Origin: Clostridia bacterium
GTDB lineage: Bacteria > Bacillota > Clostridia > RUG12999
Assembly (NCBI GenBank): GCA_022801925.1
Contig: JAAWTG010000008.1
Location: 2,619-66,618, forward strand
Reading direction: 5' to 3'
DNA length: 64,000 nt
Shown here: positions 10,876 to 58,532 of the stretch, piece by piece
How positions within the stretch are numbered: position 1 is the stretch's first letter
Layout: each line of letters opens with the position of its first letter
Translations under genes and position numbers: made by a program
Notes under the pieces: model-generated
Told to the model about the DNA's origin: nothing
The model's database searches: none
Seen by the model: the letters and a program-made list of their open reading frames with translations, nothing else

Positions 10876-10910
10876 TTTGATAAATAGAAATTTGTCAGGG
10901 AGACATATGA

Positions 10911-11408: not shown

Positions 11409-11417
11409 AGGTGATTT

Positions 11418-14364: not shown

Positions 14365-14532
14365 AAAACGCGTTTGTAGGATGATAGAACCCCCCGATAT
14401 GATGGTTATGTGGAAAATCAATGGTTTGACACAAAAAAATCCATCCTGTTGGGGGATTCTTTTATATACAAAAACGAAATCTACAGCGGGGTGGAACAAG
14501 AAACATGAAATGCAATAGAAGAGGTTTTATTT

Positions 14533-14991: not shown

Positions 14992-15315
14992 TTGATGATA
15001 AATCCTATAGATTGATTTGAAATTAAAAAATATCAGAATGAGAGAAAATAAGAGATTATATTGCAAATAAACATTGGAATCGTTATATCGGTGACGAACG
15101 ATAGTTTGAGGTGGTACGCATCTTTGGAGCAAATGTAAAGTGGAAATCACGGATAACAGAACAAGCAATATTACTTGTTCGCTGCTTCAGAAGCGTGCAC
15201 CGTTTGTTGCCGGTGGTGAGTTCGCGGTCATACATATGACTTATATGTCAAGCGGTAAGATAAAACGATAGATGATGGGGCATGAAACAGTTGCGGGTAA
15301 AAGAGGAGGAAAGAA

Positions 15316-15967: not shown

Positions 15968-16162
15968 AGAAGTGCATGGATTGAAATAGATTTTGTGCCA
16001 GCATATGTGTGAGCACTATTTGTTGTCAAATCAGAAGCAATATATATGAAGTGATACACGCAGCGAGTGAAAACAAAAATCCGATAGATTGTTTTTCTGA
16101 AGGCTGTCTGTAAGTAGGCAAACAAAAGTCGATTTTCTTATGCCTAAAGGAGGGGAACCCAA

Positions 16163-33030: not shown

Positions 33031-35307
33031 TTACGTTTGCGATTTTCGATAGTTGCCCGGCGTTGTTCCGACTGTTTTTTTAAACAGGCGGATAAACGAG
33101 GTTGTATTGAGAAATCCTGTTTCCAGCGAAATATCGTCAATTTTTTTAGACGTACAGCGCAATAGTTCCTTTGCTTTTTCAATTCGCTTGTTGTTGATGT
33201 AGTTAACAAAACCCTCTGGCTGAATGGTTTTAAAAATTTTAGAGATATAAGGTGAACTGATGTGAAACTCCTGTGCTACCATGTTGGCACTGAGATCCGC
33301 ATCGGTATAATGCTCGTCAATATATGTCTTGATTTTCTTTGCCAGTGCCGCGGCACCGCTGTCGTTTGCCGCTTCAGTTTCCCGTTTGATTTTTGCACAA
33401 ATGCTTTCAATCAAATCATGAATACCGCTTTGAATAGCGCGGATATCAGCAGAACCGGTCAGTGTCAGTAAGTATATATCGTTGACCTTTTGATTATCGC
33501 TGCTAACGTAGTTTTGGAAATTTTTCGTAATCGTATTGATAAGGTCATGGATATAGTATTTAAACACAACAGGATTAAAGTTGATAGAGTGCGTGGATTG
33601 ATGAATGAGGTCGTCAACAAAGGCACATGCCTTTTCCTGTTCTCCGTATTTAATATAGTTGCATAATTGGCTGATTTTATCAATTCTGAAAAACAGCGGG
33701 TCTGTATGTTCAGCGGCAATATCCTCGTAAAATACAATATCGGATTCTCCTGTGAATTGGATATAGTCAATACAGGTAAACGCTTCGGCATATGCCTTAG
33801 ACAGCTCGAAAATATCGCCGTGCCATTCGCTGACGCCAGCAGAAAAATCTACGCTGAAATGCTGTTTCATCAAAGCGATAATTTCGCCCAGCACGCCGTC
33901 CAGCAGTGCGAAATCCTGCTGGGAACGCACGGCAATGAGCGCAATACAATTTCCGTAGCTTTCAAAGAAATAACTCTCCATGCCTTTGTCGTCCAACAGT
34001 TCCCGACCGATGTTGTCAATGATGTCCACCAGCAAATTGTAGCGCTCGAAATCAGAAATGTTTTCATCCTGAAATAAATCGGCGTAATGTTGCATGGGGA
34101 ACAGAATCACCACATTCGGCGGAGAGGACAGTTCGGGAGCAAGATATTTCTTGACCGTATCGCCTTGGATGTCGGAAATTGTGCCATTGAGTAATTTCGC
34201 CCAGAACGTATCTTTTAGCTGCCGGTTATGTTTTTCCTGAATGGTTTTTGTTTGCCGCAGCTGCTGCGCTGCATCTAAGATAAGTCCTTCAATTTGCGAC
34301 ATTTCGTTCTGGTCGCGATATTGTGTGGGAACCTTCATTAAAACTTTCCGAATCGGTGAATATTGGCGGTTGACCAGAAACCGTATAGCAACCATACCCA
34401 ATATCACAGCGATAAGCATAAGCAGCGACACGACATAAAAACTGTTAGAGGATGCATAATAGTAGGTTTTTGGCGTGTAGAACACAAAATGCCAGCCGGT
34501 ATCGGAGGAAGAGATATAGTTTGCTATAGTTGCCTGCTCGTTCAGGTTAAATTCAAACATTCCCTGTGGCTGTGTGAACTGTTCCGTCACACCCTGCGAT
34601 AAAGTGTCGGAAGAAAGTGTTGTGGCAAGCAGCATGTCAGAACGGTCAAATATTTCGTAGTTGATTTTGCTGTCTGCAATCATTTTGCCGAGTTGATAGC
34701 TAAAATAGGCGTCGCGAATCATGATAATCATGAATACATTATCAGAGGACAGCCGGTATTTAAACGTGACATATTTCGGCGAAACGTCCGTCAAAGAACT
34801 AGTACCCTTGACAATTTTAAATTCTTCATAGGGCGAGGATACCCATTCCTGCCAAGTGGGATAGTCAATATCCAGTCCAGTGTAGACGGAATTGAAAAAT
34901 TTTGCGTCCTCCTGCAGCCCTTCTGCACTGCCAACCGTACCGGAGTTACCATAATAAAAATAGAACTTATACGCATTATATAAGGTAAAATAATAGGGCT
35001 TGAGCGCTTCCTGAAACGAATGAATCATCTCGGGGGAAGCCTGCTGCGTTGCTTGAAGTGTACGGATAGCCAAAACATCTTGGTTAGTGGCAAGTTCAGA
35101 CGCAATGGTCTTATAACGACCGAGTTCCAAATCAATTTGCTGCTGCACATTTTGATAGAATACATTGTTTTTTTGATTCAGTTCCTGACGGATATTTTTC
35201 ATTAAATATTGATATGTAATATAATTGAACACAACCGGAATGATGAGTACAAAGAAAAAGGAACGCGACCATTTGGAAACCAGAGATGATTTTTGAAAAA
35301 AGTTCAA
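33031..35307 (-). CDS. Membrane-anchored sensor regulator with a C-terminal AraC-family HTH domain
   Basis: N-terminal TM segment, a large extracytoplasmic domain, a second TM, then AraC HTH x2 (...ISSPYISKIFK...TGFLNTTSFIRLFKKTVGTTPGNYRK). TTG start preceded by AGGAGG. Confidence 0.7.
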   Translation of the reverse strand: MNFFQKSSLVSKWSRSFFFVLIIPVVFNYITYQYLMKNIRQELNQKNNVFYQNVQQQIDLELGRYKTIASELATNQDVLAIRTLQATQQASPEMIHSFQEALKPYYFTLYNAYKFYFYYGNSGTVGSAEGLQEDAKFFNSVYTGLDIDYPTWQEWVSSPYEEFKIVKGTSSLTDVSPKYVTFKYRLSSDNVFMIIMIRDAYFSYQLGKMIADSKINYEIFDRSDMLLATTLSSDTLSQGVTEQFTQPQGMFEFNLNEQATIANYISSSDTGWHFVFYTPKTYYYASSNSFYVVSLLMLIAVILGMVAIRFLVNRQYSPIRKVLMKVPTQYRDQNEMSQIEGLILDAAQQLRQTKTIQEKHNRQLKDTFWAKLLNGTISDIQGDTVKKYLAPELSSPPNVVILFPMQHYADLFQDENISDFERYNLLVDIIDNIGRELLDDKGMESYFFESYGNCIALIAVRSQQDFALLDGVLGEIIALMKQHFSVDFSAGVSEWHGDIFELSKAYAEAFTCIDYIQFTGESDIVFYEDIAAEHTDPLFFRIDKISQLCNYIKYGEQEKACAFVDDLIHQSTHSINFNPVVFKYYIHDLINTITKNFQNYVSSDNQKVNDIYLLTLTGSADIRAIQSGIHDLIESICAKIKRETEAANDSGAAALAKKIKTYIDEHYTDADLSANMVAQEFHISSPYISKIFKTIQPEGFVNYINNKRIEKAKELLRCTSKKIDDISLETGFLNTTSFIRLFKKTVGTTPGNYRKSQT

Positions 35308-37791: not shown

Positions 37792-37825
37792 AAAAAGGAA
37801 AAAAAGAAAGGGGAAGAAAATCGTG

Positions 37826-39451
37826 ATGAAAAATTGGAAAAAAGCAGTGGCTGTTTTAACAGCGGTAATGATGGTAGGCGCTCTGGCAGCCTGCGGTGGC
37901 GGACAACAGGCAAACGCACCGGTAGAGGAAACAGGCGTAAACCAGACAGGATTCCCGATTGTGAACGACAAAATCACCATTAAAGTAATGGCGCCCAACT
38001 GGAACAACAGCAGAGACTATAATGAAAAGAAAGTCATTCAAAACTATGAAGAAAAAACGAATATTCATGTGGAATGGACTTATTTCACAGGAGATGCTTC
38101 GGAAAAACTGTCTCTTGCATTTGCGGCAAAGAATAACATGCCGGATTGCTTTTTGATGGCAGACCTGCCGTCCAGCACGGTGGATAAATACGGAGCGGAT
38201 GGTGTAATTTTGCCGGTAGAAGATTTAATTGAAAAATATGCGCCCAACATCAAGGCGGCGATTGACGAAGATACAGACGGCAGAAAAATGGCAACGGCAG
38301 CAGACGGACATATGTATGCAGTACCGTCTCTGTACCGCAGTCCGCAGGAACAAATCCGCGGCGAACAGTTCATTAACAAACAATGGCTGGATAAACTGGG
38401 CTTGTCCGTTCCTTCCACAACTGACGAGCTTTATACGGTGCTGAAAGCATTTAAAGAACAAGACCCCAACGGTAATGGACAGGCGGATGAAGTGCCGCTG
38501 GTAATGCAGTGGGATAACAACATCAGTGGTATTGCATCCCTGTTTGGCTCCTGGGGCGTTGGCAGCGCATATACAGGCGCTGGTGGTTCTTGTGAAGCGG
38601 GTCCCTTCTTCATCAAAGATGGGAAAGTGGTTGTAAGCAACATGCAGGAAGAATATAAAGAAGCGGTGAAATTCTTCCATAAATTATATTCCGAAGGTTT
38701 AATTAACATTGATACCTTCACCGGCGAAGCAAAAACCATTGAAGCAAAAATCAAAGCGGAACCCTATACAGCGGGAATGTTCAGCGGATGGGACACAGCC
38801 AGAGCGGGCGTGTTTTCTAAATCCTCTCAATATTATACAGAAGTACCGCCGCTGAAGGGCCCAAAAGGTGAACAGAACGTATTTAAACCGGTTTATGGCG
38901 TTTTTGCCAACAACTATATTTCGGCAACCTCCAAACATCCAATGGCAGTGATGCGCTGGATGGACGGTACGGCAGACCCGGATACTTCTTATGAATGGAA
39001 CACGGGAATGGTTGGAAAAGTGATTGAAAAAATTGATGGAAAATGGCAAAAACTGCCGGTTCCGGAAGGTGAGGACGAAGCGACTTTCCGTGGAAACGAT
39101 GTTTATCAGTTCCCTGTCATGGGTATCACAACAAGATGGTATAAAGAGAATGTCAATTTGACGAGTGAACCGCAGGCACAGTTTAGAATCAAAGTAAATG
39201 AACTCTATCTGCCCTATGCAAGCATGATGTCGGTAGAACATTTACACTATAATGAAAAACAGCGCAAAACACTGGAAGCGGTATTGCCGCAGATTGTGGA
39301 CTATTCCAAACAGAAAGAAGCGGAATGGGTAACAAACGGCAACATTGACGCAGAGTGGGATGCACATATCAAACAACTGCAAAATATGAACATTAGCGAA
39401 GTGCAGAAAATCATGCAGGAGGCATCTGATTATTGGAACAGTATTGATTAA
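37826..39451 (+). CDS. Extracellular solute-binding lipoprotein of a carbohydrate ABC transporter (LplA-like)
   Basis: Lipobox LAACGGG. 540 aa. Immediately follows the two permeases. Confidence 0.8.
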   Translation: MKNWKKAVAVLTAVMMVGALAACGGGQQANAPVEETGVNQTGFPIVNDKITIKVMAPNWNNSRDYNEKKVIQNYEEKTNIHVEWTYFTGDASEKLSLAFAAKNNMPDCFLMADLPSSTVDKYGADGVILPVEDLIEKYAPNIKAAIDEDTDGRKMATAADGHMYAVPSLYRSPQEQIRGEQFINKQWLDKLGLSVPSTTDELYTVLKAFKEQDPNGNGQADEVPLVMQWDNNISGIASLFGSWGVGSAYTGAGGSCEAGPFFIKDGKVVVSNMQEEYKEAVKFFHKLYSEGLINIDTFTGEAKTIEAKIKAEPYTAGMFSGWDTARAGVFSKSSQYYTEVPPLKGPKGEQNVFKPVYGVFANNYISATSKHPMAVMRWMDGTADPDTSYEWNTGMVGKVIEKIDGKWQKLPVPEGEDEATFRGNDVYQFPVMGITTRWYKENVNLTSEPQAQFRIKVNELYLPYASMMSVEHLHYNEKQRKTLEAVLPQIVDYSKQKEAEWVTNGNIDAEWDAHIKQLQNMNISEVQKIMQEASDYWNSID

Positions 39452-39522
39452 GAACTTGAAACATACGGCTTCCCGAACCCTTTTTCGGTTCGGGAAGCAA
39501 TCAGGAAGGGGAGAAAACGGAC

Positions 39523-42500
39523 ATGAAACGACATGCAAAGCGTTTTTGTGGAATACTTTTGCTCACGGCAATGCTGCTGGCAATGATTCCGGCAGGATTT
39601 GCCGCCGCAGCGGGGGTTGCCATGCCAACGGCTGATGTTGCGCCGGGACTCTATAGGGAGACCAAACAGGTTTCGCTGTCGGCAGCGGCAGGTGCAACGA
39701 TTTATTATTCCACAGATAATAAAATGCCGGACGAGACCTGCACAGAATATACAGGTTCCATCACAGTGAGTGAAACCACAAATATTTGTGCCATTGCGGT
39801 GGCAGACGGCGTGAAAAGCGACCCTGTCACGTTTACATACATCATCAAAGATGCAGAAGAACCGATTTTTCAATTTGTAGCAATGAGCGATATTCATATC
39901 GGCGACAGGACAAAAGACGCACCGCGGGTAAAGAAAGCGTTTGATGTGATTCAGTCCATTTTCCCGGAGCCGGATGCGATTGTTCATGTGGGCGACCAAA
40001 TCAACGACAACCACGTTGCCCATCCGGAACAGCCGGATCGCAGTGCAGACCATCAAATTGTGGTTGATATGCTGCAAAAAGAATTGCAAGACCGCAGCTT
40101 GACAGACAAAACCGACGTCAGCATGGTAATGGGAAACCATGACTCGACGGTAAGTAATATGCAGAAATACTATCCGGAAGAGTGGTATCCAACCTCCGGA
40201 CCGGGCTACTATCATAAAGTGATTGACGGCTATGATTTTCTGTTTTTGAACACAGAAAGCGCAAATCAGACGCAAGCAAATTGGTTAAGTGAAAAATTGC
40301 TGGAAATCACGAAAAATAAAACAGAGATGAACAAACCCATTTTTGTGGCGGGACACAGACCACTTGCAGGAACGGTGTTGGACAGCCAATATGCAGTGAA
40401 TGCTCCGGCAATCACGAATGTGTTAGCGGAATATCCGCAGGTAGTGGCGTTTTCGGGACATTCGCATATCAACATGAACGACGAAAAATCCATTCATCAA
40501 AAAAACTATACTTCTTTGAATACAGGTTCCATGAGTTATATTGAAATTGACCGTGGTAACAATTTTCAGATGCACACTAATGCAGGACAAGTGGCATCCT
40601 TTGAAATTCCTGTCACGCAGTGCTACTTTGTGGAAGTCTTTAGTGACCGTGTGGAATTTGACCGCGTGGCAGTGAACGCGGACTGGGGCGATGCCAGACC
40701 GCATTTTATCCCATCTGAACCCTTCAACAATACTGGTGTATCCATTGGAGAACGCTGGACGGTAGATATGACAGGCGACATTAAAAGCAAATTCCAATAT
40801 ACAGCAGAAAAACGAAAAGGCAGCGCGCCGACCTTTGCAGCGGATGCAAAAGTAACAGCAAAAATAGAAGGCGGCAAAGCGCTTGTAACTTTCTCTCAGG
40901 CGGAGGACGTGCAGAAGCTTCGCTATTATGAAGTAGCTATGCGCGATGCAGCAGGAAACGACGTCAAATCCATGAAGGTACTGCCGGAGCACTATTTCTC
41001 ACCGGTACCGCGTACATTAACCTATGAATTTACGGATATTCCGCAGTTTGGCGGCAGTTATACCTTTGGCGTCCGCGGCGTGGATACCTTTGGCAACCGC
41101 TCGGAAGCGATTGTCACGGAAGAAGCGGTGACTGTGCCGAAGTTGCCAGGGATTTTACCGACTTATCTGGTAAACGAGACATTCACCGAGGAACCGACAG
41201 ACGCGGCGACACAAGTAATGCCATTTGTAGACGCATGGAGCGGCGGACAGGCAACAATAAACTACAATAATGGAATGTGCAATCTGGTCAATGGTGGAAA
41301 TACAAACTTTGGTTTGGGAATGCCGCTTATGCCGGGAGATGGAACAACCGCTACGCCGACCGGACCTTTGATGGTAGAATGGGAATGGAAAGACGCTACA
41401 GGTGCAGGGGAAGAAATCCAAGCCTATTTCCGTAATGCGGCGGGTCAAAACTCATTTGTTGTCCGTGCTTATTCCGGTAGCTATAACTGCCGATTCATTA
41501 ATGCAAGCAATGGTTCCGGCAGTAACTGGGGTAGTTCTTCAGCGGCAGGATCCAATGCTATGACCAAGGTGCGGGTGCTGCTGAATAACACAGGAAGTGC
41601 AGCTTATGTAGATGGCGTGTGGCTGAATGGGACACGTATTGTCAGTGAACGTCAGACATTTCTCAGAGATGTTGGCGCTGGATTTTCAAAAATTATTTTC
41701 AGTCACAAGACAAATGGCTCAACGGGCGATACGGTATTTAATATAGATAATCTCAAGGTATGGGTGCCGGCGGCTTCCCAAGCGGCAAAATTAGCGGCGG
41801 AGGACGGTGCGGCGATTACTTTTGACGATATCAAAGGAACCAACGAAGCGGCGAATAATATCACGTCAGACTTGGCGTTGGCGGCGAAAACAGAAACAAC
41901 AAACGGTTTGATTGTCACAGGCTGGAAATCCAGCAATCCAGCAGTCATTGCGGCAGACGGTACTGTAACGCGTCCAGGACTTGGAGAACCGGACACAGAA
42001 GTGACTCTGACACCGATTCTGGGCGTACTGGATTTTGAAAACGAAACAGACGGCAACTATGCTACGGCAGAAGGAACGCCCATCACAGTGACGGTCAAAA
42101 CCACCGACACCACCGGCGGCATTCGTCCGGAGGATGTGAATGGCGTTGGATATTATGTCAACGAAACCTATGACGAGAAACCGACTGACCCACAGACGCA
42201 TTCCATTCCAAGCATTGGCACATGGAGCGGCGGCACGGCAGAATGGACTGTGGAAGATGGAAAACTGGCGATGGTACCGACGTCAACCGGTTATAATTTC
42301 AATATACAAATCCCCTTCATGCCGGGAGAAATGAAAGAAAATATCGTGCCGAAGGGCAAGGTATATATTGATTTTAAATGGCAACATGGTGCAAATGAAA
42401 CACAGACCGACCTTTATGTGCAGGGGTATGCAAGCAATCTTGTGAAGTTGATAGCAAAAAGCGGAAAACTAGAGGTAGCGTATTATGACGCAAGTAATAA

Positions 42501-45500
42501 ACTGCAAACCTATGCAACTTCTGCGAGCGGACTCAATTTTAATCAAATGAATCAGATTAAACTTTTGATGGATGTAAAAGCCGATGGAGCATCCACCTTG
42601 GAAGGCTTTTGGTTAAATGGAACGGAAGTCAAAACGGGATCCGTAACTCTTTATAAGAAAACGGGAACGGAAGATAAAGATATAGAAAGAGGACCGGCCG
42701 GCTTGGTTTCCTCTCGATGGGCAACAACAGGTACAAAACCCTACAAAATGTTAGAGTTTGATTATATGAAAACATGGCAGCCGGTAGAAGAACAGCTTGC
42801 GGCGAAAGCGGCGAAAGCGACGGTTACATTTGACAGCATTAAAGGCGCCAATACAGCGGCAGACAATGTTATGGGGAATCTGAAACTAGGGGGGGCGTCA
42901 TATGAAATTATAAATGGACTTTCTCTGGTCGGATGGAAATCCGGCAACGAAGCTGTTATTAAAGCAGATGGCACTGTAGTACGTCCTGCCTATGGCAGCG
43001 GCGATGTACAGGTGGCGCTGACGCCGGTATTTGCAATGCGCAACAGCGAAAACGAAGATGGCGTTCCCGAACTTGTCAAAGCAGACGGTACGCCGATTAC
43101 CGTAACAGTGAAAGAAGCAGGAAAACCAACGGACTTTAATGTGACATATTTAGTAAATGAAGATTTTGATACTCTGCCAACAGAAGCAGACGCAGCAACC
43201 CGTCCCATTCCGTCTGAATCGGCATGGAGCGGCGCGTCCGCTACGGTTGATGTGGCGGACAGTGCGGCTCGGTTGAAACTGGACGGCGGCATTGCAAAGA
43301 ACACACAAATGAATGTTCCTGTCATGCCGGGAGCAGCAGCAAGTACCATGCCGCGCGGAAAGAATATGATTGAATTTGAATGGAAACATCATGCAAATGC
43401 AACGCAAATCATGGTCTATTTGCAAGGGGCAAACGGACATGTGCTGAGACTGGAAAAGAGCGGGACGAGTACAATTATTAAAAAAGGAACCAACGGCAGT
43501 GCTTTTTCCGATGTAAAAACGTTAAGTAATCAGGTCTTTACAACTGATACAAAAGTCCGTCTGCAAATAGACACTTCGACAGAAGGTAAGACCTATTTGG
43601 AACAATTGTGGATTGGTGGAACACCAAAATTAGACAGTCGCGTGGAATTGTTTGATGCGGGTGATGGATTGAAGCAATTGATGTTTGCGCCCGGAAATAC
43701 GACTACCGGCGTAGGCGATATCGTGTGTAGCGTCAACTACATTAAAGCATGGCAGAGCGCACCGGCGCAGCTTGCAGAATATGTAGCACAAAATCCTGTG
43801 AACGTTACATTTGATAACATTAAAGGCGAGAACACAGCAGCGAACAATGTGACGAGCAATCTGCAAAAAGCAGATTTAGGTAACGGCTTGAAAGTGGTTG
43901 GCTGGAAAACCAGCAACGCGGCAGTCGTTGCGGCGGATGGCACTGTGACACGCCCTGCAAAGGGAAGCGGAGATGTTCAGGTGACTTTAACGCCGATGAT
44001 TGGAACAGAGGATATCACAGGCGAAGGAACAGACGGTTATATTTCTGTAGACGGTACGCCGATTACGGTTACGGTGAAAGAAGCTACGGGAGAAACAACA
44101 CCGACACCGACGGAAACAGCGACACCAACGCCCACGCCAACATCGGATACGCCCACGCCCACGCCGGTACCAGGCGAATCAAAATTGGCATATTTTGTGA
44201 ATGAACCTTTTGATACCCTGCCGACGGCGGCAGATGCGGCAACCAGACCCGTTCCGGTTGTAAGTGATTGGGGCGGAAAAGATTCCATAGTTCGGGTAAC
44301 CGATGGCGCGGTGCAGTTGGTTCGCGGCAGCAAAGCGGCGAACACCTGTCAATTGGACGTGCCGCTTATGACAGGTACCGGCACGGCAAGTATGCCGCGC
44401 GGCGAAAACATGATTGAATTTGAGTGGAACCGCAACAGTAAATCAACGCAAATGGCGGTTTATATCAAGGGCAGCGCAGGACACGCGATGAAACTGAATT
44501 GCACGAATAATTCCATGGCAATTCAAAGCTCCCAAACCGGTAAACCAAATGCCGGTGAATTTACCACCTTGGCAACGGTAGACAATCTCAATTTGGGCAG
44601 CGGCTGGACAAAAGTCCGGTTGAAAATTAATTCAACAGGAACAAGTACCTATCTGGAACAAGTTTGGGTGAACGGCGAAGCGAAACTGTCGTCAAAAGCA
44701 GTGCTGTTTGACGTTGGGCAAGGATTGCAGCAGATGATGTTCTCGCCAGGTAACGGTTCTGTAGGTGCAGGAGAAGTGATTGTCAGCCTGAACTATTTAA
44801 AAACATGGCAAAGCGCAGCGTCTCAAATTGCGGAACTGTCCCAAGGCGCTGTCACCTTTAACGATATCAAAGGTACAAATACGGCGGCAGACGCTGTAAC
44901 AGCAAATCTGGATTTCAGTAAAACGGAAATCGGCGATTTCAGAGTACAGGGCTGGAAATCCTCCAACGAAGACATTATTGCGGCAGACGGCAGCGTGACG
45001 CGTCCGCTGATTACGCAGAACGACGCGCAGGTGGTGCTGACGCCGATACTGGGCATGGCGGACACGACAAACGAAGGCGACGGCACTTGGGTCTATGGCG
45101 ACGGCGCACCCTTGACAGTCACCGTGAAGAAAATGGGCGCGGCGGACGCGGTTGCACGGGTGAAAGCAGAGCTATCCTTTGACGACATCAAAGGTATCAA
45201 CACGGCGGCGGACAGTGTGACGGATAATCTGGACTTTATTCGGGAACTGAACGGCGTAAACATTCAGTGGAGTGTGCAGTCCATGACGCCTTCCACAACA
45301 ACGGCAAAAGTGGACGGCGCAACCGGCATGGTGGTTCGTCCGCAGATGAATGAAAGCGATGTGACCGTTGTATTGCGTGCGGCGCTTACCTGTGAGGGTG
45401 CGTCCGACACCAAAGACATCACGGTAACACTCAAGAAACTGGACGTATCCGCAGAGGAATATCTGCGGCAGTTGGCGGACAGTCTGACCTTTGCGGAAAT

Positions 45501-47127
45501 TGCAGGGGATAACAAAGCAGAGAATCGAATCACAGCGAACCTGCACCTCATTCCTTCTTTCAAGGGAGCGCAGGTGACATGGCAGTCCAGTCAGCCGCAG
45601 ACGGTTGCGGCTGACGGCAGTGTGACACGTCCGGACTATCCGCAGCCATCTGCTGAAGTGCAGCTTACAGCAACGCTGCAAATGGAAGGCGCACAGCCGG
45701 TCACAAAAGTGTTCCGTGTTGTGGTTCTGTCTACCGATTCGGACAACTTAGCATTAGAGAAAACTGTGAAAGTCAACGTAGCAGCGGACGGAGACACCAA
45801 AGCGGCGAACCTGACAGACGGCGACAGAGATACAACCTTCCGCACCAAAGCAGGTGCGAAAGCCTATACGGTGACAATTAATTTGGGCAGTGAAACACCG
45901 TTTAGCAGCTTGGACGTCTATGAAGTCGCAAACGGCGACGGTGTCTATGCGATTGAAGCCTATACAGTTGACATTTCAAATGACGGTAAAACATGGAAAA
46001 CCGTTGCGACAGGCGGCACCATTGGACTGGGCAGCACCATTGCTTTTGATCCGGTAATCGCACAGTATGTACGGTTAAATGTGACCAAAAAGAAATCGGG
46101 CGTGGCGTCGGAGCTGGCAGAAATTGCAGTACGTTTGCAGCCAACAGAGGCGCAGCGTGTGAAAGCGGATATTGAAAATCTGATGCTAGACCTGCCGGAT
46201 ACCATTACGGCAAACAGTATTACTTTGCCGGCAAAAGGTGCGTTTGGTTCGGATATTACATGGACATTTACGCCGGAGGGAATTATCGCTCAGACCGGAA
46301 CGCCGGACGGCAATGGCAATATGACGTATGCAGTGACCCATCCGCAAAACGGACAACGGGTAACGCTCGTTGCAACAGCAAAAAGCGGCGCTGCGGCAGC
46401 GAAAAAGAACTTTAATCGTTCTGTTAGCGGTACCGCTACGAATAACGGAGGCGGCGCAGGTAACAGTGGCGGGGGCAGCGGAAGTGCTTCTGGTGGCAGT
46501 GGCAGCGGCGGCGGAAAAATGCCAAATGTGAATCTTGGAGACCTCAGCGGTGTGGGAACGCCGAGTGGCGCGAACAAACCGTCACAAGAGGGATTCCGCG
46601 ATATGGAACAGGATGCATGGGCAATTCCATATGTCATGAAGCTGTATACGCGCGGCGTGGTACAAGGCGATGAAAACGGAAACTTCCGGCCGGCACAGAG
46701 TGTTAACCGTGAAGAATTTGTAAAAATGCTGGTGCTGGCGCTGGACGTTCCGGAAAGCGAAGCAGACATCGCATTTGCCGATATGGAACAAGGCGCTTGG
46801 TACAGAGATTATATTCAGGCAGCAGTGGCAGCAGGTATTGTCAAAGGCGTATCGGAGGAGCGGTTTGGCGTAGGCGAAACCATCACGCGTGAAGATATGG
46901 CAACGATGATTTACCGTGCGGTGACTTACCTGAAACAAAATATTGGAAATAGTGAACATGCAGCTACCATCACGGATGCGCAGGACATCAGCAGCTATGC
47001 GCAGGAAGCAGTAAGCGCACTGGTGCGCGGTGGCGTTATCAGCGGCAACGAGGCAGGGGAATTCCTGCCGAAAAATCAGTCAACCAGAGCGGAAGCTGCA
47101 AAAATGCTGGCAATGTTGATGCAATAA
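39523..47127 (+). CDS. Giant (2534 aa) SLH-anchored cell-surface protein. Contains a calcineurin-like metallophosphoesterase domain, four tandem roughly 330-aa lectin-like + Ig-like modules, a discoidin-like domain and three C-terminal SLH repeats.
   Basis: Signal peptide. A CHB_HEX_C-like domain (GATIYYSTDNKMPDETCTEYTGSITV). Metallophosphatase motifs (AMSDIHIGD, HVGDQIND, GNHDS, GHSHIN). Repeats start at about 41141, 42142, 43141 and 44187. PT linker. SLH x3 begin at DMEQDAWAIPYV. Confidence 0.8.
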   Translation: MKRHAKRFCGILLLTAMLLAMIPAGFAAAAGVAMPTADVAPGLYRETKQVSLSAAAGATIYYSTDNKMPDETCTEYTGSITVSETTNICAIAVADGVKSDPVTFTYIIKDAEEPIFQFVAMSDIHIGDRTKDAPRVKKAFDVIQSIFPEPDAIVHVGDQINDNHVAHPEQPDRSADHQIVVDMLQKELQDRSLTDKTDVSMVMGNHDSTVSNMQKYYPEEWYPTSGPGYYHKVIDGYDFLFLNTESANQTQANWLSEKLLEITKNKTEMNKPIFVAGHRPLAGTVLDSQYAVNAPAITNVLAEYPQVVAFSGHSHINMNDEKSIHQKNYTSLNTGSMSYIEIDRGNNFQMHTNAGQVASFEIPVTQCYFVEVFSDRVEFDRVAVNADWGDARPHFIPSEPFNNTGVSIGERWTVDMTGDIKSKFQYTAEKRKGSAPTFAADAKVTAKIEGGKALVTFSQAEDVQKLRYYEVAMRDAAGNDVKSMKVLPEHYFSPVPRTLTYEFTDIPQFGGSYTFGVRGVDTFGNRSEAIVTEEAVTVPKLPGILPTYLVNETFTEEPTDAATQVMPFVDAWSGGQATINYNNGMCNLVNGGNTNFGLGMPLMPGDGTTATPTGPLMVEWEWKDATGAGEEIQAYFRNAAGQNSFVVRAYSGSYNCRFINASNGSGSNWGSSSAAGSNAMTKVRVLLNNTGSAAYVDGVWLNGTRIVSERQTFLRDVGAGFSKIIFSHKTNGSTGDTVFNIDNLKVWVPAASQAAKLAAEDGAAITFDDIKGTNEAANNITSDLALAAKTETTNGLIVTGWKSSNPAVIAADGTVTRPGLGEPDTEVTLTPILGVLDFENETDGNYATAEGTPITVTVKTTDTTGGIRPEDVNGVGYYVNETYDEKPTDPQTHSIPSIGTWSGGTAEWTVEDGKLAMVPTSTGYNFNIQIPFMPGEMKENIVPKGKVYIDFKWQHGANETQTDLYVQGYASNLVKLIAKSGKLEVAYYDASNKLQTYATSASGLNFNQMNQIKLLMDVKADGASTLEGFWLNGTEVKTGSVTLYKKTGTEDKDIERGPAGLVSSRWATTGTKPYKMLEFDYMKTWQPVEEQLAAKAAKATVTFDSIKGANTAADNVMGNLKLGGASYEIINGLSLVGWKSGNEAVIKADGTVVRPAYGSGDVQVALTPVFAMRNSENEDGVPELVKADGTPITVTVKEAGKPTDFNVTYLVNEDFDTLPTEADAATRPIPSESAWSGASATVDVADSAARLKLDGGIAKNTQMNVPVMPGAAASTMPRGKNMIEFEWKHHANATQIMVYLQGANGHVLRLEKSGTSTIIKKGTNGSAFSDVKTLSNQVFTTDTKVRLQIDTSTEGKTYLEQLWIGGTPKLDSRVELFDAGDGLKQLMFAPGNTTTGVGDIVCSVNYIKAWQSAPAQLAEYVAQNPVNVTFDNIKGENTAANNVTSNLQKADLGNGLKVVGWKTSNAAVVAADGTVTRPAKGSGDVQVTLTPMIGTEDITGEGTDGYISVDGTPITVTVKEATGETTPTPTETATPTPTPTSDTPTPTPVPGESKLAYFVNEPFDTLPTAADAATRPVPVVSDWGGKDSIVRVTDGAVQLVRGSKAANTCQLDVPLMTGTGTASMPRGENMIEFEWNRNSKSTQMAVYIKGSAGHAMKLNCTNNSMAIQSSQTGKPNAGEFTTLATVDNLNLGSGWTKVRLKINSTGTSTYLEQVWVNGEAKLSSKAVLFDVGQGLQQMMFSPGNGSVGAGEVIVSLNYLKTWQSAASQIAELSQGAVTFNDIKGTNTAADAVTANLDFSKTEIGDFRVQGWKSSNEDIIAADGSVTRPLITQNDAQVVLTPILGMADTTNEGDGTWVYGDGAPLTVTVKKMGAADAVARVKAELSFDDIKGINTAADSVTDNLDFIRELNGVNIQWSVQSMTPSTTTAKVDGATGMVVRPQMNESDVTVVLRAALTCEGASDTKDITVTLKKLDVSAEEYLRQLADSLTFAEIAGDNKAENRITANLHLIPSFKGAQVTWQSSQPQTVAADGSVTRPDYPQPSAEVQLTATLQMEGAQPVTKVFRVVVLSTDSDNLALEKTVKVNVAADGDTKAANLTDGDRDTTFRTKAGAKAYTVTINLGSETPFSSLDVYEVANGDGVYAIEAYTVDISNDGKTWKTVATGGTIGLGSTIAFDPVIAQYVRLNVTKKKSGVASELAEIAVRLQPTEAQRVKADIENLMLDLPDTITANSITLPAKGAFGSDITWTFTPEGIIAQTGTPDGNGNMTYAVTHPQNGQRVTLVATAKSGAAAAKKNFNRSVSGTATNNGGGAGNSGGGSGSASGGSGSGGGKMPNVNLGDLSGVGTPSGANKPSQEGFRDMEQDAWAIPYVMKLYTRGVVQGDENGNFRPAQSVNREEFVKMLVLALDVPESEADIAFADMEQGAWYRDYIQAAVAAGIVKGVSEERFGVGETITREDMATMIYRAVTYLKQNIGNSEHAATITDAQDISSYAQEAVSALVRGGVISGNEAGEFLPKNQSTRAEAAKMLAMLMQ

Positions 47128-47206
47128 AAATGGAGTGGGGGTTTGCGGGAGTTTTCACTCCTGCAAACCCAAAAACGGAATACGCAATTGGGGAGGCTGC
47201 GAAGAA

Positions 47207-49915
47207 ATGAATATGAAAAAAATACTCAGTATGGTGCTCGCATTTGTCCTGTTATTAGCGTGCAGCATACCGGCGCTGGCAGAAACCGAACTGCCGGACA
47301 AAGTGTTGTTTGATTTAGAATCCCTTGGGATTGTACAAGGAAACGAAAATGGAGATATGGAACTGGACGGTCCCCTCACACGGGCGGAGTTCGCATCCAT
47401 GATAGTACGCCTGAAACAGATGCAGGACTGGCCGGCACAGTTGCCGGAGGGCATCACTGATGTTGAAAAAGATGATTGGTTCTATGGGGAAGTATGCCGC
47501 ATTTTGACTGCCGGTATGATGGTGGGATATGGAGACGGTAGATTTGGACCGAATGACCAAATGGACATGGAAATGGCAATGAAAGTGTTGGTGGTAAGTC
47601 TTGGGTATGATGTGGCAGCACAAAAGCGCGGCGGATATCCGGACGGCTACCGCAATATTGCGGCGGAACTGGGACTGCTGCGGGGCAGCAATATCACACC
47701 GGGCACTTTTACGCGGGCAGATATCCTGCGTATGATTTACAACAGTCTGGACGTTTCCATTGCCCAGCCTGGTTATAGTTATGATGAAATTATTCAAATT
47801 ACGGAGGATACATTCCGGCAGCGGATTTTGGAAAAAGACCGTGAGAGCCAGTTGTTCAAAGGAAAAGGCGTTGTCACAGCCAATTCCAAACTGTGGATTG
47901 GCAGTAAACCAAGCGGTAAGCTGGCAGCAGACGAAGTCTATATTGACAATGTCCGCTATAAAACAGAGATTGCAAATGCAGGAAACTACCTCGGTATGGA
48001 AGTGGATTACTATGCGCAGGAGGGCAGCGACGGTCTGCTGCATTTGACGAGCGTGAAACCAACGAAGCGCAATGAGACGCTGACGCTGACAGAACAAGAC
48101 TGGACGCAGCCGCAGAATGGGAAAATGACCTATTATAAAGACGGCAAACAAATCACACTAAGCATTTCCCCACAAGCGCTTCTGATTCAAAATATGCGGC
48201 TGCAAAGCAGCTATACGGAAGCGGATATGACGCTGGAGCGCGGCGCGGTGACACTGATTGACAATGACGGCGACAGCGCTTATGATATTGTCGATATTGA
48301 AACGTTCCACAGCTACCGTGTTGACCGTGTGAACGGCGATATCATCTATCTGAAAACGGCGGGCAAAGCGCCGCAGCGCAATTTCATTAACTTTGACGAT
48401 AACGACGACGTTGTTTATACGATTTTAAACGCAGAAAATGAAGTTTGTAAACCGGAGGACATCAAAGCGGATGACATTGTCAGCGTGGTGGAAAGCGAAG
48501 ACGGGCAGGTTTGCACCGTTGTAATCGGACAGGAAAAAATAACGGGAGAAATCACCGAACTGGAAGAGGACAGCGTACTGGTAGGAGATACCAAATATGA
48601 TTTGGAACCGGGATTTGAAGAAACTGGTAAAACGCTTAAAGTCGGAGACAATTTTGCATTTTATCTGAACTACCGCGGCGAAATTTGCACGGTGAATGAA
48701 GAAATGGGACTGGAAGGCGCGGAAAAATATGCCTATGTGGCAGAAGTGGGGCGCAGAAGCGGCATGAGTCCCAATCTGGAAGCAAAACTGCTGCTGCCCG
48801 GCGATTTTGTGGAAACGCAGGAAGAGTCTGATATTGAGGACGATACCAGCGTTATCCTGAAATTAAAAGGACAAAACGCCAATGTTGTTATTTTGGAATT
48901 TGCAGATAAAGTGTCTGTAGATGGCAAAACAATGGGCGCGGCAGAACTGGAACAGCACTTTTCCAAAACGGACGACAAAGGGCGGCTGGTGAACAATGTC
49001 ATTCGCTACCGTGCGAATGCAAACGGCGAAATTAAAACCGTCACCACACCCACAATCGTAGGAACTTCAGGGAAACGCGTGTATAATGCAAAAGAAAAAG
49101 TGTTTGGTAAAAAAGCGATTTCTGCCTTCGGTGCGGAAGAAACCACAAAAGTGTTGATGATTCCCGACTATGAAAAGCAAAGCATAGAAAGCATCAAGGA
49201 CGAGGACTATCTCGCACCGGTGGAAATCAATGATGAACAGGAATATTATATCAACGGCTATGATATCAAAGAGGAAAATGAATGTGTCCGCGTGCTGGCA
49301 ATCACGGCAACGCTGAAAGCGGACAGCCCGGGCGCTATCATTGACAGCAGTAAAATGGCTGTGGTGGAATCCGTCTCCATGTGCGTGGACGAAGAAGGCG
49401 AATCACGTTACAAAATCTATTTCTGGTCGGGCGGCGTGAAAATGAGTTACATGGTGGACGACATGGCGCATACACAGGCGAAAGCGCTTGGCAGCGGCGA
49501 TATTTTCTACTATGCTGTTTCGCCGGCAACGAACCAGATTAATAAAATTATCCGCATTGACAATGCCGTAAAACCGTCCGGCGGAATGGGCGAATTCGGT
49601 ATCGGAACGGAATCCAATCCGGAGGGACTCGGTAAAACGGTTTGCGGGTATGTGTCCGGCGTGGAATATCAGAAGATTGAAGATATTTTAAATCGCCGTG
49701 TGGATCGTATCACCGTTGATTTCGGAAACGGCAGCGAAGCGGTTGTGAAAGCAAACAGCCGTAATGCCCCGCCGGTATATTTATATGACGCGCAGCTCAA
49801 GACGATAAAGGTGATTTCGTCTCAGGATATCATTCCGGCACAGACAAACAGCGCAGACCAAATCATGGTACATATTAAAAACAGCACGGTGCGCGGCATC
49901 GTTATTGTCCGCTGA
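47207..49915 (+). CDS. SLH-domain protein (three N-terminal SLH repeats) with a roughly 700-aa C-terminal region of unknown function
   Basis: Signal peptide MKKILSMVLAFVLLLACSIPALA, then SLH repeats (LESLGIVQGNENG..., ...GYGDGRFGPN...). RBS GGGGAGG. Confidence 0.6.
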   Translation: MNMKKILSMVLAFVLLLACSIPALAETELPDKVLFDLESLGIVQGNENGDMELDGPLTRAEFASMIVRLKQMQDWPAQLPEGITDVEKDDWFYGEVCRILTAGMMVGYGDGRFGPNDQMDMEMAMKVLVVSLGYDVAAQKRGGYPDGYRNIAAELGLLRGSNITPGTFTRADILRMIYNSLDVSIAQPGYSYDEIIQITEDTFRQRILEKDRESQLFKGKGVVTANSKLWIGSKPSGKLAADEVYIDNVRYKTEIANAGNYLGMEVDYYAQEGSDGLLHLTSVKPTKRNETLTLTEQDWTQPQNGKMTYYKDGKQITLSISPQALLIQNMRLQSSYTEADMTLERGAVTLIDNDGDSAYDIVDIETFHSYRVDRVNGDIIYLKTAGKAPQRNFINFDDNDDVVYTILNAENEVCKPEDIKADDIVSVVESEDGQVCTVVIGQEKITGEITELEEDSVLVGDTKYDLEPGFEETGKTLKVGDNFAFYLNYRGEICTVNEEMGLEGAEKYAYVAEVGRRSGMSPNLEAKLLLPGDFVETQEESDIEDDTSVILKLKGQNANVVILEFADKVSVDGKTMGAAELEQHFSKTDDKGRLVNNVIRYRANANGEIKTVTTPTIVGTSGKRVYNAKEKVFGKKAISAFGAEETTKVLMIPDYEKQSIESIKDEDYLAPVEINDEQEYYINGYDIKEENECVRVLAITATLKADSPGAIIDSSKMAVVESVSMCVDEEGESRYKIYFWSGGVKMSYMVDDMAHTQAKALGSGDIFYYAVSPATNQINKIIRIDNAVKPSGGMGEFGIGTESNPEGLGKTVCGYVSGVEYQKIEDILNRRVDRITVDFGNGSEAVVKANSRNAPPVYLYDAQLKTIKVISSQDIIPAQTNSADQIMVHIKNSTVRGIVIVR

Positions 49916-49946
49916 GTCGGAACAGGGAAACGGAGGTATGAAAAAC

Positions 49947-52900
49947 ATGAAAGGAAAACGAATTCTGACCGGACTGCTGCTGGCGTCTTTGCTGGCGGCG
50001 GGTTTCCCAGCGGCAGCGGAAGAAATGCCGGAAGCGGTGCAGCCGGAACTTATTCAGCAGGAAAAAACAGAGATGGTTAGCGTATCCGAAGGAGAAGACG
50101 GCGGCGCAGAAGAAACAGAAGACCCAGTGCTGGCGTTTGAAGATATCACAAGCAAAACGGGCATTTCAGACGAAACTTTCTATGGAAAATATGACGCGGC
50201 AACGGATACTTGGACGGTGAAACCCTATTTTAACTACGACAAATATCCCGAGATGGCGGCGGTAAAACAGGCGGCTATGCAAGTGACAGACGGCGACTAC
50301 AGCACCGTGAAAGAAGAAATTCTGCAATACTACCGTGACAAACGGAGCCGTCAAAACGTTCCCATGCAGGGGTCACCCAACACGCAGGCAGCATTTTTCG
50401 GTTATGCGATGAAAAAGAATTTCTATTTTCACCCCAGTTGGCCCATGCTCGGATATTTTAACGTAAACGGAACGCCGGACTACTATTCCGTAGATGTGAC
50501 CCACCAGTGGGACAGCATTAAAACAGCGCCCGACCACGTGGTATCTATGATATTGATGGCGTCGGAGAAGGACGGCAACACGGCTGAATTTGAAAGCAGA
50601 CAGGGAGCGCACCCGCCTATTCTGGAGGTGGAATCCAACGGCGTTGTCACCACGCTGACGGCGACAAAGGACGCAACTGTCATTGCGGGCAGCAGCGACA
50701 GCAAAAACTTTGGCAAAGAACCGACGCTGTTGGTGGAGGAAAGCGCAACGACAATTGGTGCAAGTGAACCGACGGACAGCAACACCAAACGGTCGCATAT
50801 CCAGTTTGACATCTCGGACATCAGTGTCACGGACGCGATTACCAGAGTGACATTGAAGGTCTATGGCAGAAACGCGACTTCGGACGAAGAAAAAGAAATT
50901 TTTGCAATGAAAACGCCCAACAATGCTTGGGAAGAAGACGTGATTACGTTTTACAGACTGGATAAAACGCAGGCATATGAACACATGGCGTATTCATGGG
51001 ACAAAGAGGACAGTGTTCGCTATATGCGCCCGAAATATCAGGGTTTCCGTCTCCGTGAGGAACTGGAACGGTTTGAAACATGGTTCCCCATGATGCTGGG
51101 CATGTATATACAAGGGACGGAAAACAATGAGGACTATGCCTATACGGCGATTCGTCATTGGGTGGGCTGGCTGAACCAGTCGGGTACCAATCCAAAGGGA
51201 CCGGGCTATGTGATTCCGCTGGATCATGGCTGCCGCAGTATTGCACTGCCGCGGGCGTTTGCATGGCTGATTATGTCGGAACATATGACGCCGGACGTGT
51301 GGAGCGCCACGCTGAAATATATGTGGAAAAGCGGCGACATCATGGTGACAAATAATTATGCCATCAACGACCCCAACAACGCGGGCGTTGTGGCGGCGCG
51401 CGGACTGCACATGATGAACTGCTACTATGACGAATTTGCAACCTATGACAAATGGCTGGCAAAGACGCGTACCAAAATTCAAACAGTGGCAAACGGCAGT
51501 CTGATTGACGCGGAAGGCGGCTATGGAGAAGGTTCTTTGGCATATGCTTCCATGACGGTTAACAACATGTTTGGATATACAACACCTAACACAGATACCA
51601 ATGTACAGGATTTGCCTTTCAATAACCGTGCTGATTATGACAAGGTAGAAGATTTGGCGGTTTATCTCATGGATATGAGTATGCCCGGCTATAAAGACAG
51701 TCAATGGGGCGATGGCGCTGAGTATACGACCGGATATACAGGACCGTTCCGGACGGTATTGCAGGAATATGACAATCCCCATTTGAAATATGCTGTCGGT
51801 GAAGAAGGCGGCATGGTTCCTGACTATACTTCAGTGCTTTACAAAAACTACCGCCGTATGGTAATGCGCAGCGGTTGGGGAGAAAATGACAATTATCTGT
51901 TTACAGATTTGGACGGCGCGACAGTGCAGCATACGCATAAAGATGATAATAGTATTATTGTGAAAGCCTATGGACAATATTTGCTCAGCGACCAGCTATT
52001 CTTTTCCTATGGAACAGGAACAGTCAAGAATTATCTGGAATCTACTCGCGCACACAATACCATAGAAATTGACAACGCCAGCCAAGGAACGAAAAAGCGC
52101 GGCAATGTGAAATATTGGGAAAGCAATGATATCTATGACCACACCACCAATGAATCGCTGGCATATCAGGGCGAGAAAAATGAGAAACATACCCGTGATA
52201 TCCTGTATGTTCGTCCGGGATTCTGGATTGTGGGCGATTATGTGAAACCTACCGATAGCGACACAGCACAGCATAACTATAAACAACATTGGCATATGCT
52301 GCCGGATGCGAACATTTCGTTGGACGAAGGAAGTCTGACCACAAGAACGAATTTCGGCGGTGCGGCAAACATTCAAATTGTGCAGGCGAATCCGGAGGAC
52401 ATGGACGCAAAGCTGAACAACGGTTATTATATCGGAACCACAGCAGATTACGTGACCTATGAACAGCAAGCGGTGGGACCGGTCATTTTCAACACGGTAT
52501 TATATCCGGAAAAAGCGGGCGCAAATGTGGAAGTGACGGCAGAAACGCTGCCGCTGGAAAACGTAGAAAACAACGGCGTAACGGCAATGCATATCAATAT
52601 TGATAACCATACGGACAATGAATTCGTGCGTGCTGATTACTATTTGGTGCACGATGAAAAACAAAAAGCGGTGCGCAGTTTTGCAAACTATGAAACCGAT
52701 GCGCGTAGCGCATATGTGGAACGGGACGCGCTGGGCAATCTGACCCGCTTGATTGTGCAGGGCGGAACCTATGTGAAAGATTTGGATAAAAACGTGTGTT
52801 TGTTCAAATCAAAGACCCCAGTAGAACAAATTGGGTTTGGATTGTCCTATGGAACCGTTACCCGCGACACCTCAGCAAACGTGGATATGGAAAAACTGAC

Positions 52901-58397: not shown

Positions 58398-58532
58398 ATG
58401 AAAATAACAGAATTGTCAATACAAAAAAGAAATTTTTACAGAAAACAAACGGCAGTATCGCCGGCAACGATACATATACAGCAGAGAATTATCACATAAT
58501 AAAGGTAATTTGGATGTTTGGAGGAAACGCGG

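Follow-up and report, generated by a model that had tools for sequence, protein, structure and literature searches.

What might a phosphoesterase do at the far end of a wall-anchored chain of lectin-like modules? The question is posed by a protein of 2534 amino acids (aa) encoded at positions 39523-47127 of a 64,000-nucleotide (nt) stretch of DNA from a Clostridia bacterium (assembly GCA_022801925.1, contig JAAWTG010000008.1), which we refer to as the window. We propose, at odds slightly better than even (a probability of roughly 0.55), that the protein is a predicted wall-anchored phosphodiesterase acting among the surface enzymes of a polysaccharide-foraging operon of gut-type Clostridia. 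The evidence that carries this proposal lies in the N-terminal catalytic head, in the repeated stalk behind it, and in the genes that surround it here and in related genomes.

An intact phosphoesterase head on a predicted secreted protein

The open reading frame (ORF) runs in a single frame from an ATG that follows the ribosome-binding site GGAAGGGGAG, and its translation is that of a predicted secreted protein with a phosphoesterase head at the far N-terminus and an SLH wall anchor at the C-terminus. SLH domains are of the type that ties proteins to the secondary cell-wall polymer. An initial annotation, made from the sequence alone, had recognized a surface protein of this length, and the ORF, the signal peptide, the Pfam domains and the SLH repeats all agree with it, as does the Pfam match behind the CHB_HEX_C-like N-terminus that it described. 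Its domain layout needs amendment: two further aBig_2 domains, a discoidin domain, a Gly/Ser linker and three SLH repeats do follow the repeats, but the Pro/Thr linker separates repeat 3 from repeat 4, and an fn3-like domain and a seventh aBig_2 domain had been overlooked. The parts of the gene are as follows.

39523-47127, + strand: whole gene, SLH-anchored multidomain metallophosphoesterase, 2534 aa (ORF, Pfam, ribosome-binding site)
39523-39609, + strand: Sec signal peptide, aa 1-29 (MKRHAKR, a hydrophobic core, then AAA before G), read off the translation by eye
39640-39828, + strand: CHB_HEX_C_1 / Fn3_assoc Ig-like domain, aa 40-102 (Pfam E 2.8e-12 / 4.1e-09; all-beta in the AlphaFold model)
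39871-40470, + strand: calcineurin-like metallophosphoesterase, aa 117-316 by Pfam (Metallophos E 4.6e-13, 50.5 bits against a cutoff of 21.5)
40852-41142, + strand: fn3-like beta-sandwich, aa ~444-540, at the junction of head and repeat 1 (AlphaFold beta strands)
41155-41772, + strand: lectin-like (ConA-fold) module M1, aa 545-750 (self-HMM, that is, a profile hidden Markov model of the repeats; BLASTP; faint Laminin_G_3 match, E 0.077)
41806-42117, + strand: aBig_2 domain 1, aa 762-865 (Pfam; bounds by self-HMM)
42142-42786, + strand: lectin-like module M2, aa 874-1088 (self-HMM, BLASTP)
42814-43125, + strand: aBig_2 domain 2, aa 1098-1201 (Pfam, self-HMM)
43138-43761, + strand: lectin-like module M3, aa 1206-1413, the copy modelled (AlphaFold, Foldseek)
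43795-44091, + strand: aBig_2 domain 3, aa 1425-1523 (Pfam, self-HMM)
44095-44172, + strand: Pro/Thr linker TTPTPTETATPTPTPTSDTPTPTPVP, aa 1525-1550, at the junction of repeats 3 and 4 (translation)
44182-44817, + strand: lectin-like module M4, aa 1554-1765, 47% identical to M3 (self-HMM, BLASTP)
44842-45141, + strand: aBig_2 domain 4, aa 1774-1873 (Pfam, self-HMM)
45163-45729, + strand: aBig_2 domains 5 and 6, aa 1881-1973 and 1985-2069 (self-HMM E 1.8e-13 and 7.9e-16; best Pfam stretch 1996-2070)
45787-46101, + strand: F5/8 type C domain (discoidin, CBM32-like), aa 2089-2193 (F5_F8_type_C E 2.4e-16; F5_F8_type_C_2 E 2.7e-11)
46198-46425, + strand: aBig_2 domain 7, aa ~2226-2301 (segment scanned alone, E 1.1e-08, 35.2 bits against a cutoff of 27)
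46441-46515, + strand: Gly/Ser-rich linker, aa 2307-2331 (translation)
46570-47124, + strand: three SLH repeats, aa ~2350-2534, the wall anchor (Pfam E 1.8e-34, 117.9 bits, aa 2358-2534)

All five motifs expected of a calcineurin-like enzyme are complete in the head (D123-I-H125, G157-D158-QIND, G204-N-H-D207, H278 and G312-H-S-H315), as first noted, and the metal and catalytic positions within them are invariant or at least 90% conserved across an alignment of 62 head relatives. When aa 30-544 were modelled with AlphaFold from an alignment of 62 relatives (pLDDT 94.1, pTM 0.93), the result had the fold of a four-layer alpha/beta sandwich, in which the catalytic domain extends past the Pfam end to about aa 400 (nt 40722). 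Score, motifs and fold together place the head in the calcineurin-like metallophosphoesterase superfamily (PF00149). Foldseek relates the model with a probability of 1.00 to Rv0805, GpdQ, purple acid phosphatases, SMPDL3 and Mre11; the top solved neighbours are Rv0805 (2hyp, target-normalised template-modelling (TM) score 0.76) and GpdQ (3d03, TM 0.69), with the other three behind them. A sequence search of the PDB with the head sequence alone returned nothing useful; the family profile retrieved Rv0805 (E 3.9e-12), Lmo2642 (E 2e-8) and GpdQ (E 5.5e-7). Because the fold and the profile give the same ranking, the head is best described as a predicted two-metal phosphoesterase with an intact active site that is nearest to phosphodiesterases. 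These nearest solved relatives, the Mycobacterium tuberculosis class III cyclic-nucleotide phosphodiesterase Rv0805 and the Enterobacter aerogenes glycerophosphodiesterase GpdQ, have the same motif set at 15-19% identity. They are cytoplasmic or envelope-associated proteins of about 270-330 aa and lack binding modules, whereas the window protein adds about 2200 extracellular residues and a wall anchor. As for the fn3-like domain behind the catalytic domain, the family profile also matches fibronectin, titin and monobody chains, Pfam gives a weak match to Ig_ILCR1, and relatives carry fn3 (PF00041).

How widespread is this head? The family with the order CHB_HEX_C, Metallophos, fn3 gave 141 matches among the GTDB one-genome-per-species contigs, and it is thus not rare. 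The closest relatives (77-88% identity) come from two uncultured Clostridia metagenome-assembled genomes, one of them in the mouse-gut iMGMC catalogue, which points to a gut Clostridia lineage for the window as well; relatives at 36-45% identity occur in Paenibacillus, Bacillaceae, Streptomyces, Rhodococcus/Prescottella and Microbacterium. The latter share aa 30-545 of the window protein, are annotated [quoted passage not shown], and in many cases end in one Laminin_G_3 domain. They differ from the window protein in their length (540-790 aa), in having at most one lectin domain, of another family, and in lacking both an SLH domain and a conserved lyase/fucosidase neighbourhood. The domains attached to the distant relatives, whose Pfam accessions we take to be those of Laminin_G_3, fn3, dockerin, the T9SS sorting domain and choline-binding repeats, indicate an extracellular family. 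When the neighbours of 79 head-family loci were clustered, no strongly conserved context emerged in Paenibacillus or Streptomyces, and the sole recurring neighbours were ArsP_1/DUF1980 and occasional sugar ATP-binding cassette (ABC) transporter genes. With no conserved context at the distant loci, the functional argument turns on the closer relatives that carry the lectin-like modules.

The initial annotation called a phosphoesterase on a multivalent stalk unusual, a judgement that the size of the head family already makes overstated and that we do not uphold because the theme has been published. Bacillus subtilis secretes ShfP (YvnB), a calcineurin-like phosphoesterase of 1289 aa on which glycerol release depends. 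It has been placed in "a vast radiation" of calcineurin-like domains that are secreted or anchored in the membrane, with fusions to ConA-like laminin-G, FN3, discoidin-like and SLH domains; their predicted activity is the hydrolysis of phosphoester links, in (lipo)teichoic acid, extracellular DNA or phospholipid (Updegrove et al., Sci Adv 2024; PMC11488536). The window protein fits this radiation by its predicted surface location and fused domains, a comparison made at the level of domain description. Like the members of the radiation, it is predicted to be secreted, is very large, has the five metal-binding motifs and combines its catalytic domain with Ig, ConA-like lectin, FN3, discoidin-like and SLH domains, and it too would act on phosphoester links of extracellular polymers. 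ShfP itself has a lamin-tail domain and a catalytic domain inserted near the C-terminus, is sporulation-specific and releases glycerol; in contrast, the window protein places its head at the N-terminus behind a CHB_HEX_C domain, has no lamin-tail domain, displays a distinct and uncatalogued lectin family and is encoded in a polysaccharide-utilisation operon. No match of the head search was named YvnB or ShfP, and that search sees only relatives sharing 5-residue words.

These similarities raise a very unlikely alternative, in which the protein is a surface nuclease or nucleotide phosphodiesterase that acts on extracellular DNA or RNA, 2',3'-cyclic nucleotides or nucleotide-sugars, either to take up nucleosides and phosphate or to remodel a biofilm. 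Both Rv0805 and Lmo2642 belong to the cyclic-nucleotide phosphodiesterases, the SbcD/Mre11 nucleases are weaker matches to the head, and extracellular DNA is among the substrates proposed for the ShfP radiation (PMC11488536). However, Pfam finds no lamin-tail or other DNA-binding domain in the protein, no nucleoside transporter or nuclease partner is encoded nearby, where all neighbours are carbohydrate-active, and the ConA-like and discoidin domains of the stalk are typical glycan binders.

Stalk modules of a rare, uncatalogued lectin-like family

The stalk begins with four repeats of about 330 aa that start at aa 545, 874, 1206 and 1554 (nt 41155, 42142, 43138 and 44182), at most 14 nt from the positions first noted. 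Each pairs a ConA-like jelly roll with an Ig-like unit that proves to be Pfam aBig_2 (PF20578), which exceeds its curated threshold in seven stretches of the protein (258.9 bits, E 1.7e-78). By BLASTP, whole repeats are 32-47% identical in pairs (E 1e-46 to 1e-98; the earlier estimate was about 30-40%) and the lectin units alone 24-47% (E 4e-19 to 2e-68). At the DNA level, identity between repeats is patchy, at 60-80% with a period of 969-1050 nt, and the duplication is therefore old. Thus the repeats are, as read from their sequences, old duplications of a real domain pair and not low-complexity sequence, which agrees with the ancient duplication first suggested. Recent slippage was rejected as their origin, since DNA identity of this patchy kind does not describe a recent tandem array.

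To what family does the lectin-like unit, 205-215 aa long, belong? Pfam scans of single modules gave nothing over threshold, the best scores being Laminin_G_3 for M1 (E 0.077) and Polysacc_lyase for M4 (E 0.09). For Laminin_G_3 (PF13385), M1 reaches 13.6 bits against a cutoff of 27.6, and M2-M4 have no match. PDB sequence searches with 4-module and 25-module profiles gave nothing useful. A word-index search of the four modules against 5.8 billion proteins found one fragment; when 1.84 billion cluster representatives were searched exhaustively with HMMER, only 26 proteins reached E<=1e-3. Modelled with AlphaFold from 25 family members, M3 is a 15-strand beta sandwich of the ConA-like jelly-roll type (pLDDT 95.6, pTM 0.91), in line with the concanavalin-like fold first suspected. 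Its 279 Foldseek matches in the PDB at E<=1e-3 are all ConA-like lectins, glucanases or carbohydrate-binding modules (CBMs), among them the L-type lectins ERGIC-53 and VIP36, PL7 and GH16 enzymes, a phage Dit CBM, BoNT Hcn and CBM40, with TM scores of 0.5-0.64 and identities of at most 14%. Although the jelly-roll fold is held in common with ERGIC-53/VIP36, Laminin_G_3, phage Dit CBM2, BoNT Hcn and CBM40, and the "DDLKIW" of Laminin_G_3 resembles the DNxKVW motif of the C-terminal module strand, there is no membership in these groups at the level of sequence. Between the modules and the Laminin_G_3 domains of the Bacillaceae head relatives, hhalign gives a probability of 12.5%, confined to the last strands, and at that value we do not claim that the two share a family. 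Because the ConA-like model is accompanied by no above-threshold Pfam match, no useful PDB sequence match and a low hhalign probability, we regard the lectin-like unit as an uncatalogued family whose predicted fold is a known one. It is this modelled fold that suggests carbohydrate binding by the modules.

The same structural matches could be read in another way, namely that the ConA-fold modules are themselves catalytic, of a divergent GH16 or PL7 type, and that the protein is a multi-catalytic depolymerase. The Foldseek matches to GH16 lichenases (TM 0.63), PL7 alginate lyases (E 3.5e-6) and GH131, together with the faint Polysacc_lyase score of M4, are in its favour. We consider this highly improbable. 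The modules conserve neither the ExDxxE of GH16 nor the R/Q/H/Y constellation of PL7, their identity to any enzyme is at most 14%, and the conserved positions are mainly P, G, W and residues of the terminal strands (motifs YxVNExFD and DNxKVW). Furthermore, four tandem copies, each with its own Ig domain, make up the usual pattern of binding modules. Two basic residues on separate strands, R141 and K203 (M3 numbering), are nearly invariant.

Most of the 26 module relatives share the head/module architecture, and in a few the module is joined to an NPP-like domain, unrelated to the head. Three types can be distinguished.

Type (a): head, then units of module plus aBig_2 (P0117, P0119, P0121, P0133)
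Type (b), head-less: signal peptide, a series of module plus aBig_2 units, aBig_2, F5/8C, SLH (P0118, P0131, P0125)
Type (c): module, cohesin-like domain, alkaline-phosphatase-superfamily domain (P0123; also P0126, with SLH)

The alkaline-phosphatase-superfamily domain of type (c) has the motifs TDGAGN, SSCQNYNT..HG, DGYGH, ADHG and HAHG, lacks CxPxR and, judging from these motifs, looks NPP-like. A sulfatase identity for this second module-bearing enzyme was rejected, given the missing CxPxR and the NPP-like motif pattern. Since types (a) and (c) both carry the module, a rare module appears to have been joined to two unrelated phosphodiesterase-type folds, the second of them by an NPP-like assignment that is below threshold in Pfam.

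The operon and its counterparts in related genomes

The gene is the fourth in a tightly packed co-directional set that begins with two permeases and a binding protein. It is separated from its neighbours by gaps of 72 nt and 8 nt, and the next two genes, for an SLH protein and a lyase, overlap.

33031-35307, - strand: divergent AraC-family regulator (HTH_18, GGDEF_2; Pfam), with a counterpart at the same place in a related locus, L082
35809-36867 and 36886-37791, + strand: sugar ABC permeases, two BPD_transp_1 (Pfam)
37823-39451, + strand: oligosaccharide-binding protein, 542 aa (PDB 5g5y E 6.8e-62; AlgQ1/AlgQ2 E 1e-35)
39468-39498, no strand assigned: hairpin with a perfect 12-bp stem, GCTTCCCGAACC...GGTTCGGGAAGC, located after the stop codon of the binding-protein gene and before the 2534-aa gene begins
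47135-49915, + strand: 926-aa SLH protein, 8 nt downstream of the 2534-aa gene (Pfam: one SLH repeat)
49905-53807, + strand: SLH-anchored putative polysaccharide lyase, CBM96 plus heparinase II/III-like, 1300 aa (Pfam)
53868-55232, + strand: GH29 alpha-L-fucosidase (Pfam)
55363-56424, + strand: GxDLY/SGNH esterase (Pfam)

With a regulator, an ABC importer and its binding protein, surface or secreted carbohydrate-active enzymes and conservation across genomes, the set has the features by which a Gram-positive polysaccharide-utilisation locus is recognized. CBM96 is a family defined on alginate binding (PMC9971899). The hairpin is not followed by a T tract on the + strand and may be an mRNA-stabilising or attenuating element; an Rfam scan of the window gave no match. 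Pfam and PDB searches with the 926-aa SLH protein found nothing beyond its one SLH repeat, and because its homologues align only from residue 25, its true start is probably near 47207. No formylglycine sulfatases turned up among the window ORFs scanned. Upstream of the operon, on the opposite strand, lie genes for a GH88-like unsaturated-uronyl hydrolase (25475-26593) and a GH123 glycosidase (31132-32865), which are consistent with the processing of lyase products and of GalNAc-containing glycans.

The same neighbourhood recurs in other genomes. In L080 (GCA_965643355.1) and L081 (GCA_964261755.1), each locus spanning positions 1-10000, an orthologue of the 2534-aa protein, the SLH protein (76% identical), the CBM96 lyase and the GH29 fucosidase occupy the same positions as in the window. 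L082, a metagenome scaffold (ENA ERZ28596747, LUND18-1 scaffold_335), has AraC, GH95, permeases, a 964-aa protein, a binding protein, P0119, P0118, the SLH protein (45% identity) and the CBM96 lyase. The position of the lyase gene is thus the same in all three, and that of the fucosidase gene is kept in L080 and L081. A further locus, L083 (GCA_011262095.1), encodes a PL8 lyase, binding protein, permeases, GH29 and GH112, and then the phosphoesterase P0121. Every module-bearing locus read has both a polysaccharide lyase and a fucosidase at a distance of no more than 10 kb. The 964-aa protein of L082 is of type (c), with a module, a cohesin-like domain and an NPP-like alkaline-phosphatase-superfamily domain, and is 64% identical to P0123. 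This conservation fits the role on a bound polysaccharide that the initial annotation had suggested for the enzyme.

Head and stalk are encoded separately in L082 (5298-18251), where the head gene P0119 and the SLH-anchored stalk gene P0118 are adjacent. In alignments with the window protein, P0119 (head plus 2 modules) covers aa 34-1089 and P0118 (2 modules plus tail plus SLH) covers aa 1210-2532, so that by alignment the window protein corresponds end to end to two adjacent genes. In L080 and L081 the orthologue is cut at about residue 361, inside the head (junction at locus nt ~9974), by an element encoding an erm-type rRNA adenine methyltransferase (RrnaAD), a topoisomerase and Mob_Pre, along with omega/epsilon/zeta toxin-antitoxin genes; after the insertion, a 2824-aa head-less ORF with six modules is still open. 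These cases, together with the head-less members P0118, P0131 and P0125, invite the view that the protein is an adhesin or serves S-layer-associated glycan capture, with the stalk as its functional core, binding host or dietary glycans at the surface, and the head as an accessory or dispensable part. The separate genes of L082 and the destroyed heads of L080 and L081 speak for such a view. We nevertheless judge it distinctly unlikely: the active-site motifs are all intact in the window protein and conserved across the family, the fusion of head and module recurs in the distant members P0117, P0119, P0121 and P0133, and the insertion in L080 and L081 may be recent.

Could the protein instead be a phosphate scavenger? 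Genes for pstC/A/B and phoU, together with a phytase-like esterase and a phoPR-like pair, occupy 217-7038 of the window, and ppk/ppx are found at 58518-61966. The presence of these genes had been pointed out in the initial annotation and is confirmed; their link to the 2534-aa gene amounts to co-location within 64 kb, which is weak evidence at best. In the alternative that they suggest, a Pho-type enzyme resembling B. subtilis PhoD/GlpQ or ShfP would release phosphate or glycerol-phosphate from organophosphates such as teichoic acids and phospholipid head groups, whether the organism's own or its neighbours', and the stalk would serve only for adhesion to cell-wall polymers. The position of the head among Rv0805/GpdQ-like phosphodiesterases agrees with this, as do distant head relatives that carry choline-binding or cell-wall-binding repeats. 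PhoD and ShfP, moreover, provide precedents for surface calcineurin-like enzymes directed at teichoate (PMC11488536). B. subtilis PhoD (PDB 2yeq, fold rank 23) resembles the window protein as an extracytoplasmic, calcineurin-related teichoic-acid endo-phosphodiesterase with an FN3-like accessory domain, but it is Tat-exported, belongs to the Pho regulon, has an Fe/Ca site and no lectin stalk, and matches the head far less well than Rv0805 and GpdQ do. Against phosphate scavenging, the pst/pho genes lie 32 kb and the ppk/ppx genes 11 kb from the 2534-aa gene, outside the operon and with unrelated genes between, while the gene itself sits within an AraC-controlled importer/lyase/fucosidase operon that is conserved in three other genomes. 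A scan for the Pho box TTHACA-N5-TTHACA found 3 in the window against 4.6 expected and none near the operon, a weak test because the consensus is that of B. subtilis and may not be that of the host, the clostridial one possibly differing; at that weight, the negative scan speaks against Pho regulation of the gene. Overall, phosphate scavenging seems to us rather unlikely.

Three further observations concern the window itself. A 519-aa protein with a Phytase-like domain (PF13449, E 1e-47), encoded at 3383-4942 directly downstream of pstC/pstA/pstB in the interval of phoU and the phoP-phoR-like genes, is likely a Pho-regulon organophosphate hydrolase. The ppk and ppx genes, 11 kb downstream of the 2534-aa gene, overlap by 4 nt, and no link between them and the operon was found. 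Finally, the G+C fraction falls to 0.36-0.40 at 8205-16000, against 0.44-0.52 elsewhere, and this segment, with an HTH_3 repressor (8205-8849), a tyrosine integrase (8940-10220) and DUF1848 (12254-13201), is probably an integrated mobile element.

A proposed role in polysaccharide foraging

We propose that the wall-anchored phosphodiesterase works as follows. The ConA-fold modules and the discoidin domain would bind the polysaccharide on which the operon acts, so that the enzyme would hold on multivalently, with the stalk carrying the head tens of nanometres off the wall. The substrate would be an acidic, fucose-containing and probably acetylated polysaccharide. From it the head would remove phosphodiester (or phosphomonoester) links or decorations that would otherwise block the neighbouring lyase, fucosidase and esterase, and the adjacent ABC importer would take up the fragments.

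Several observations weigh against this proposal. Head-less stalk proteins exist (P0118, P0131), and thus the stalk can function without the enzyme. The conservation of the modules is mostly structural (P, G, W), with few conserved polar positions (N7, E8, D11, E79, R141 and K203), and the ConA-like fold also houses enzymes, such as those of GH16 and PL7, as well as pure spacers. The NPP-like assignment of the type (c) domain comes with sub-threshold Pfam scores (Phosphodiest E 3.6e-4, Sulfatase about 1e-3), and for the L082 copy the Sulfatase score (E 3.9e-4) is slightly better than the Phosphodiest score. The distant head relatives of Paenibacillus and Streptomyces lack a conserved glycan-degrading neighbourhood, and the function of every member of the head clade is itself a prediction from sequence. 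We know of no glycan that combines fucose, uronic acid and a phosphodiester.

The proposal can be taken further, tentatively and with considerable doubt on our part. The module may be a new CBM family for a phosphodiester-bearing or anionic, fucosylated acidic polysaccharide, to which two phosphodiesterase folds have been recruited that would carry out a glycan dephosphorylation or phosphodiester-cleavage step. To our knowledge, no such step has been demonstrated for Gram-positive polysaccharide-utilisation loci. More remote is a variant in which both head types act on sulfate esters and so replace formylglycine sulfatases.

As a kind, proteins of this sort are already known from comparative genomics. 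What is new here is the rare, uncatalogued ConA-fold family, its apparent recruitment to two phosphodiesterase-type heads, and the placement of the gene in a conserved polysaccharide-utilisation operon. If the inference fails, what is left is a well-annotated multidomain surface enzyme of an ordinary kind. If it holds, the 2534-aa protein would offer a testable case of a phosphodiesterase as a front-line enzyme in a polysaccharide-foraging operon of gut Clostridia, its modules would be a candidate new binding-module family for CAZy-type catalogues that could be used as an anionic-glycan probe, and a functional context would be provided for the radiation of surface calcineurin-like phosphoesterases, in which only ShfP has genetics.

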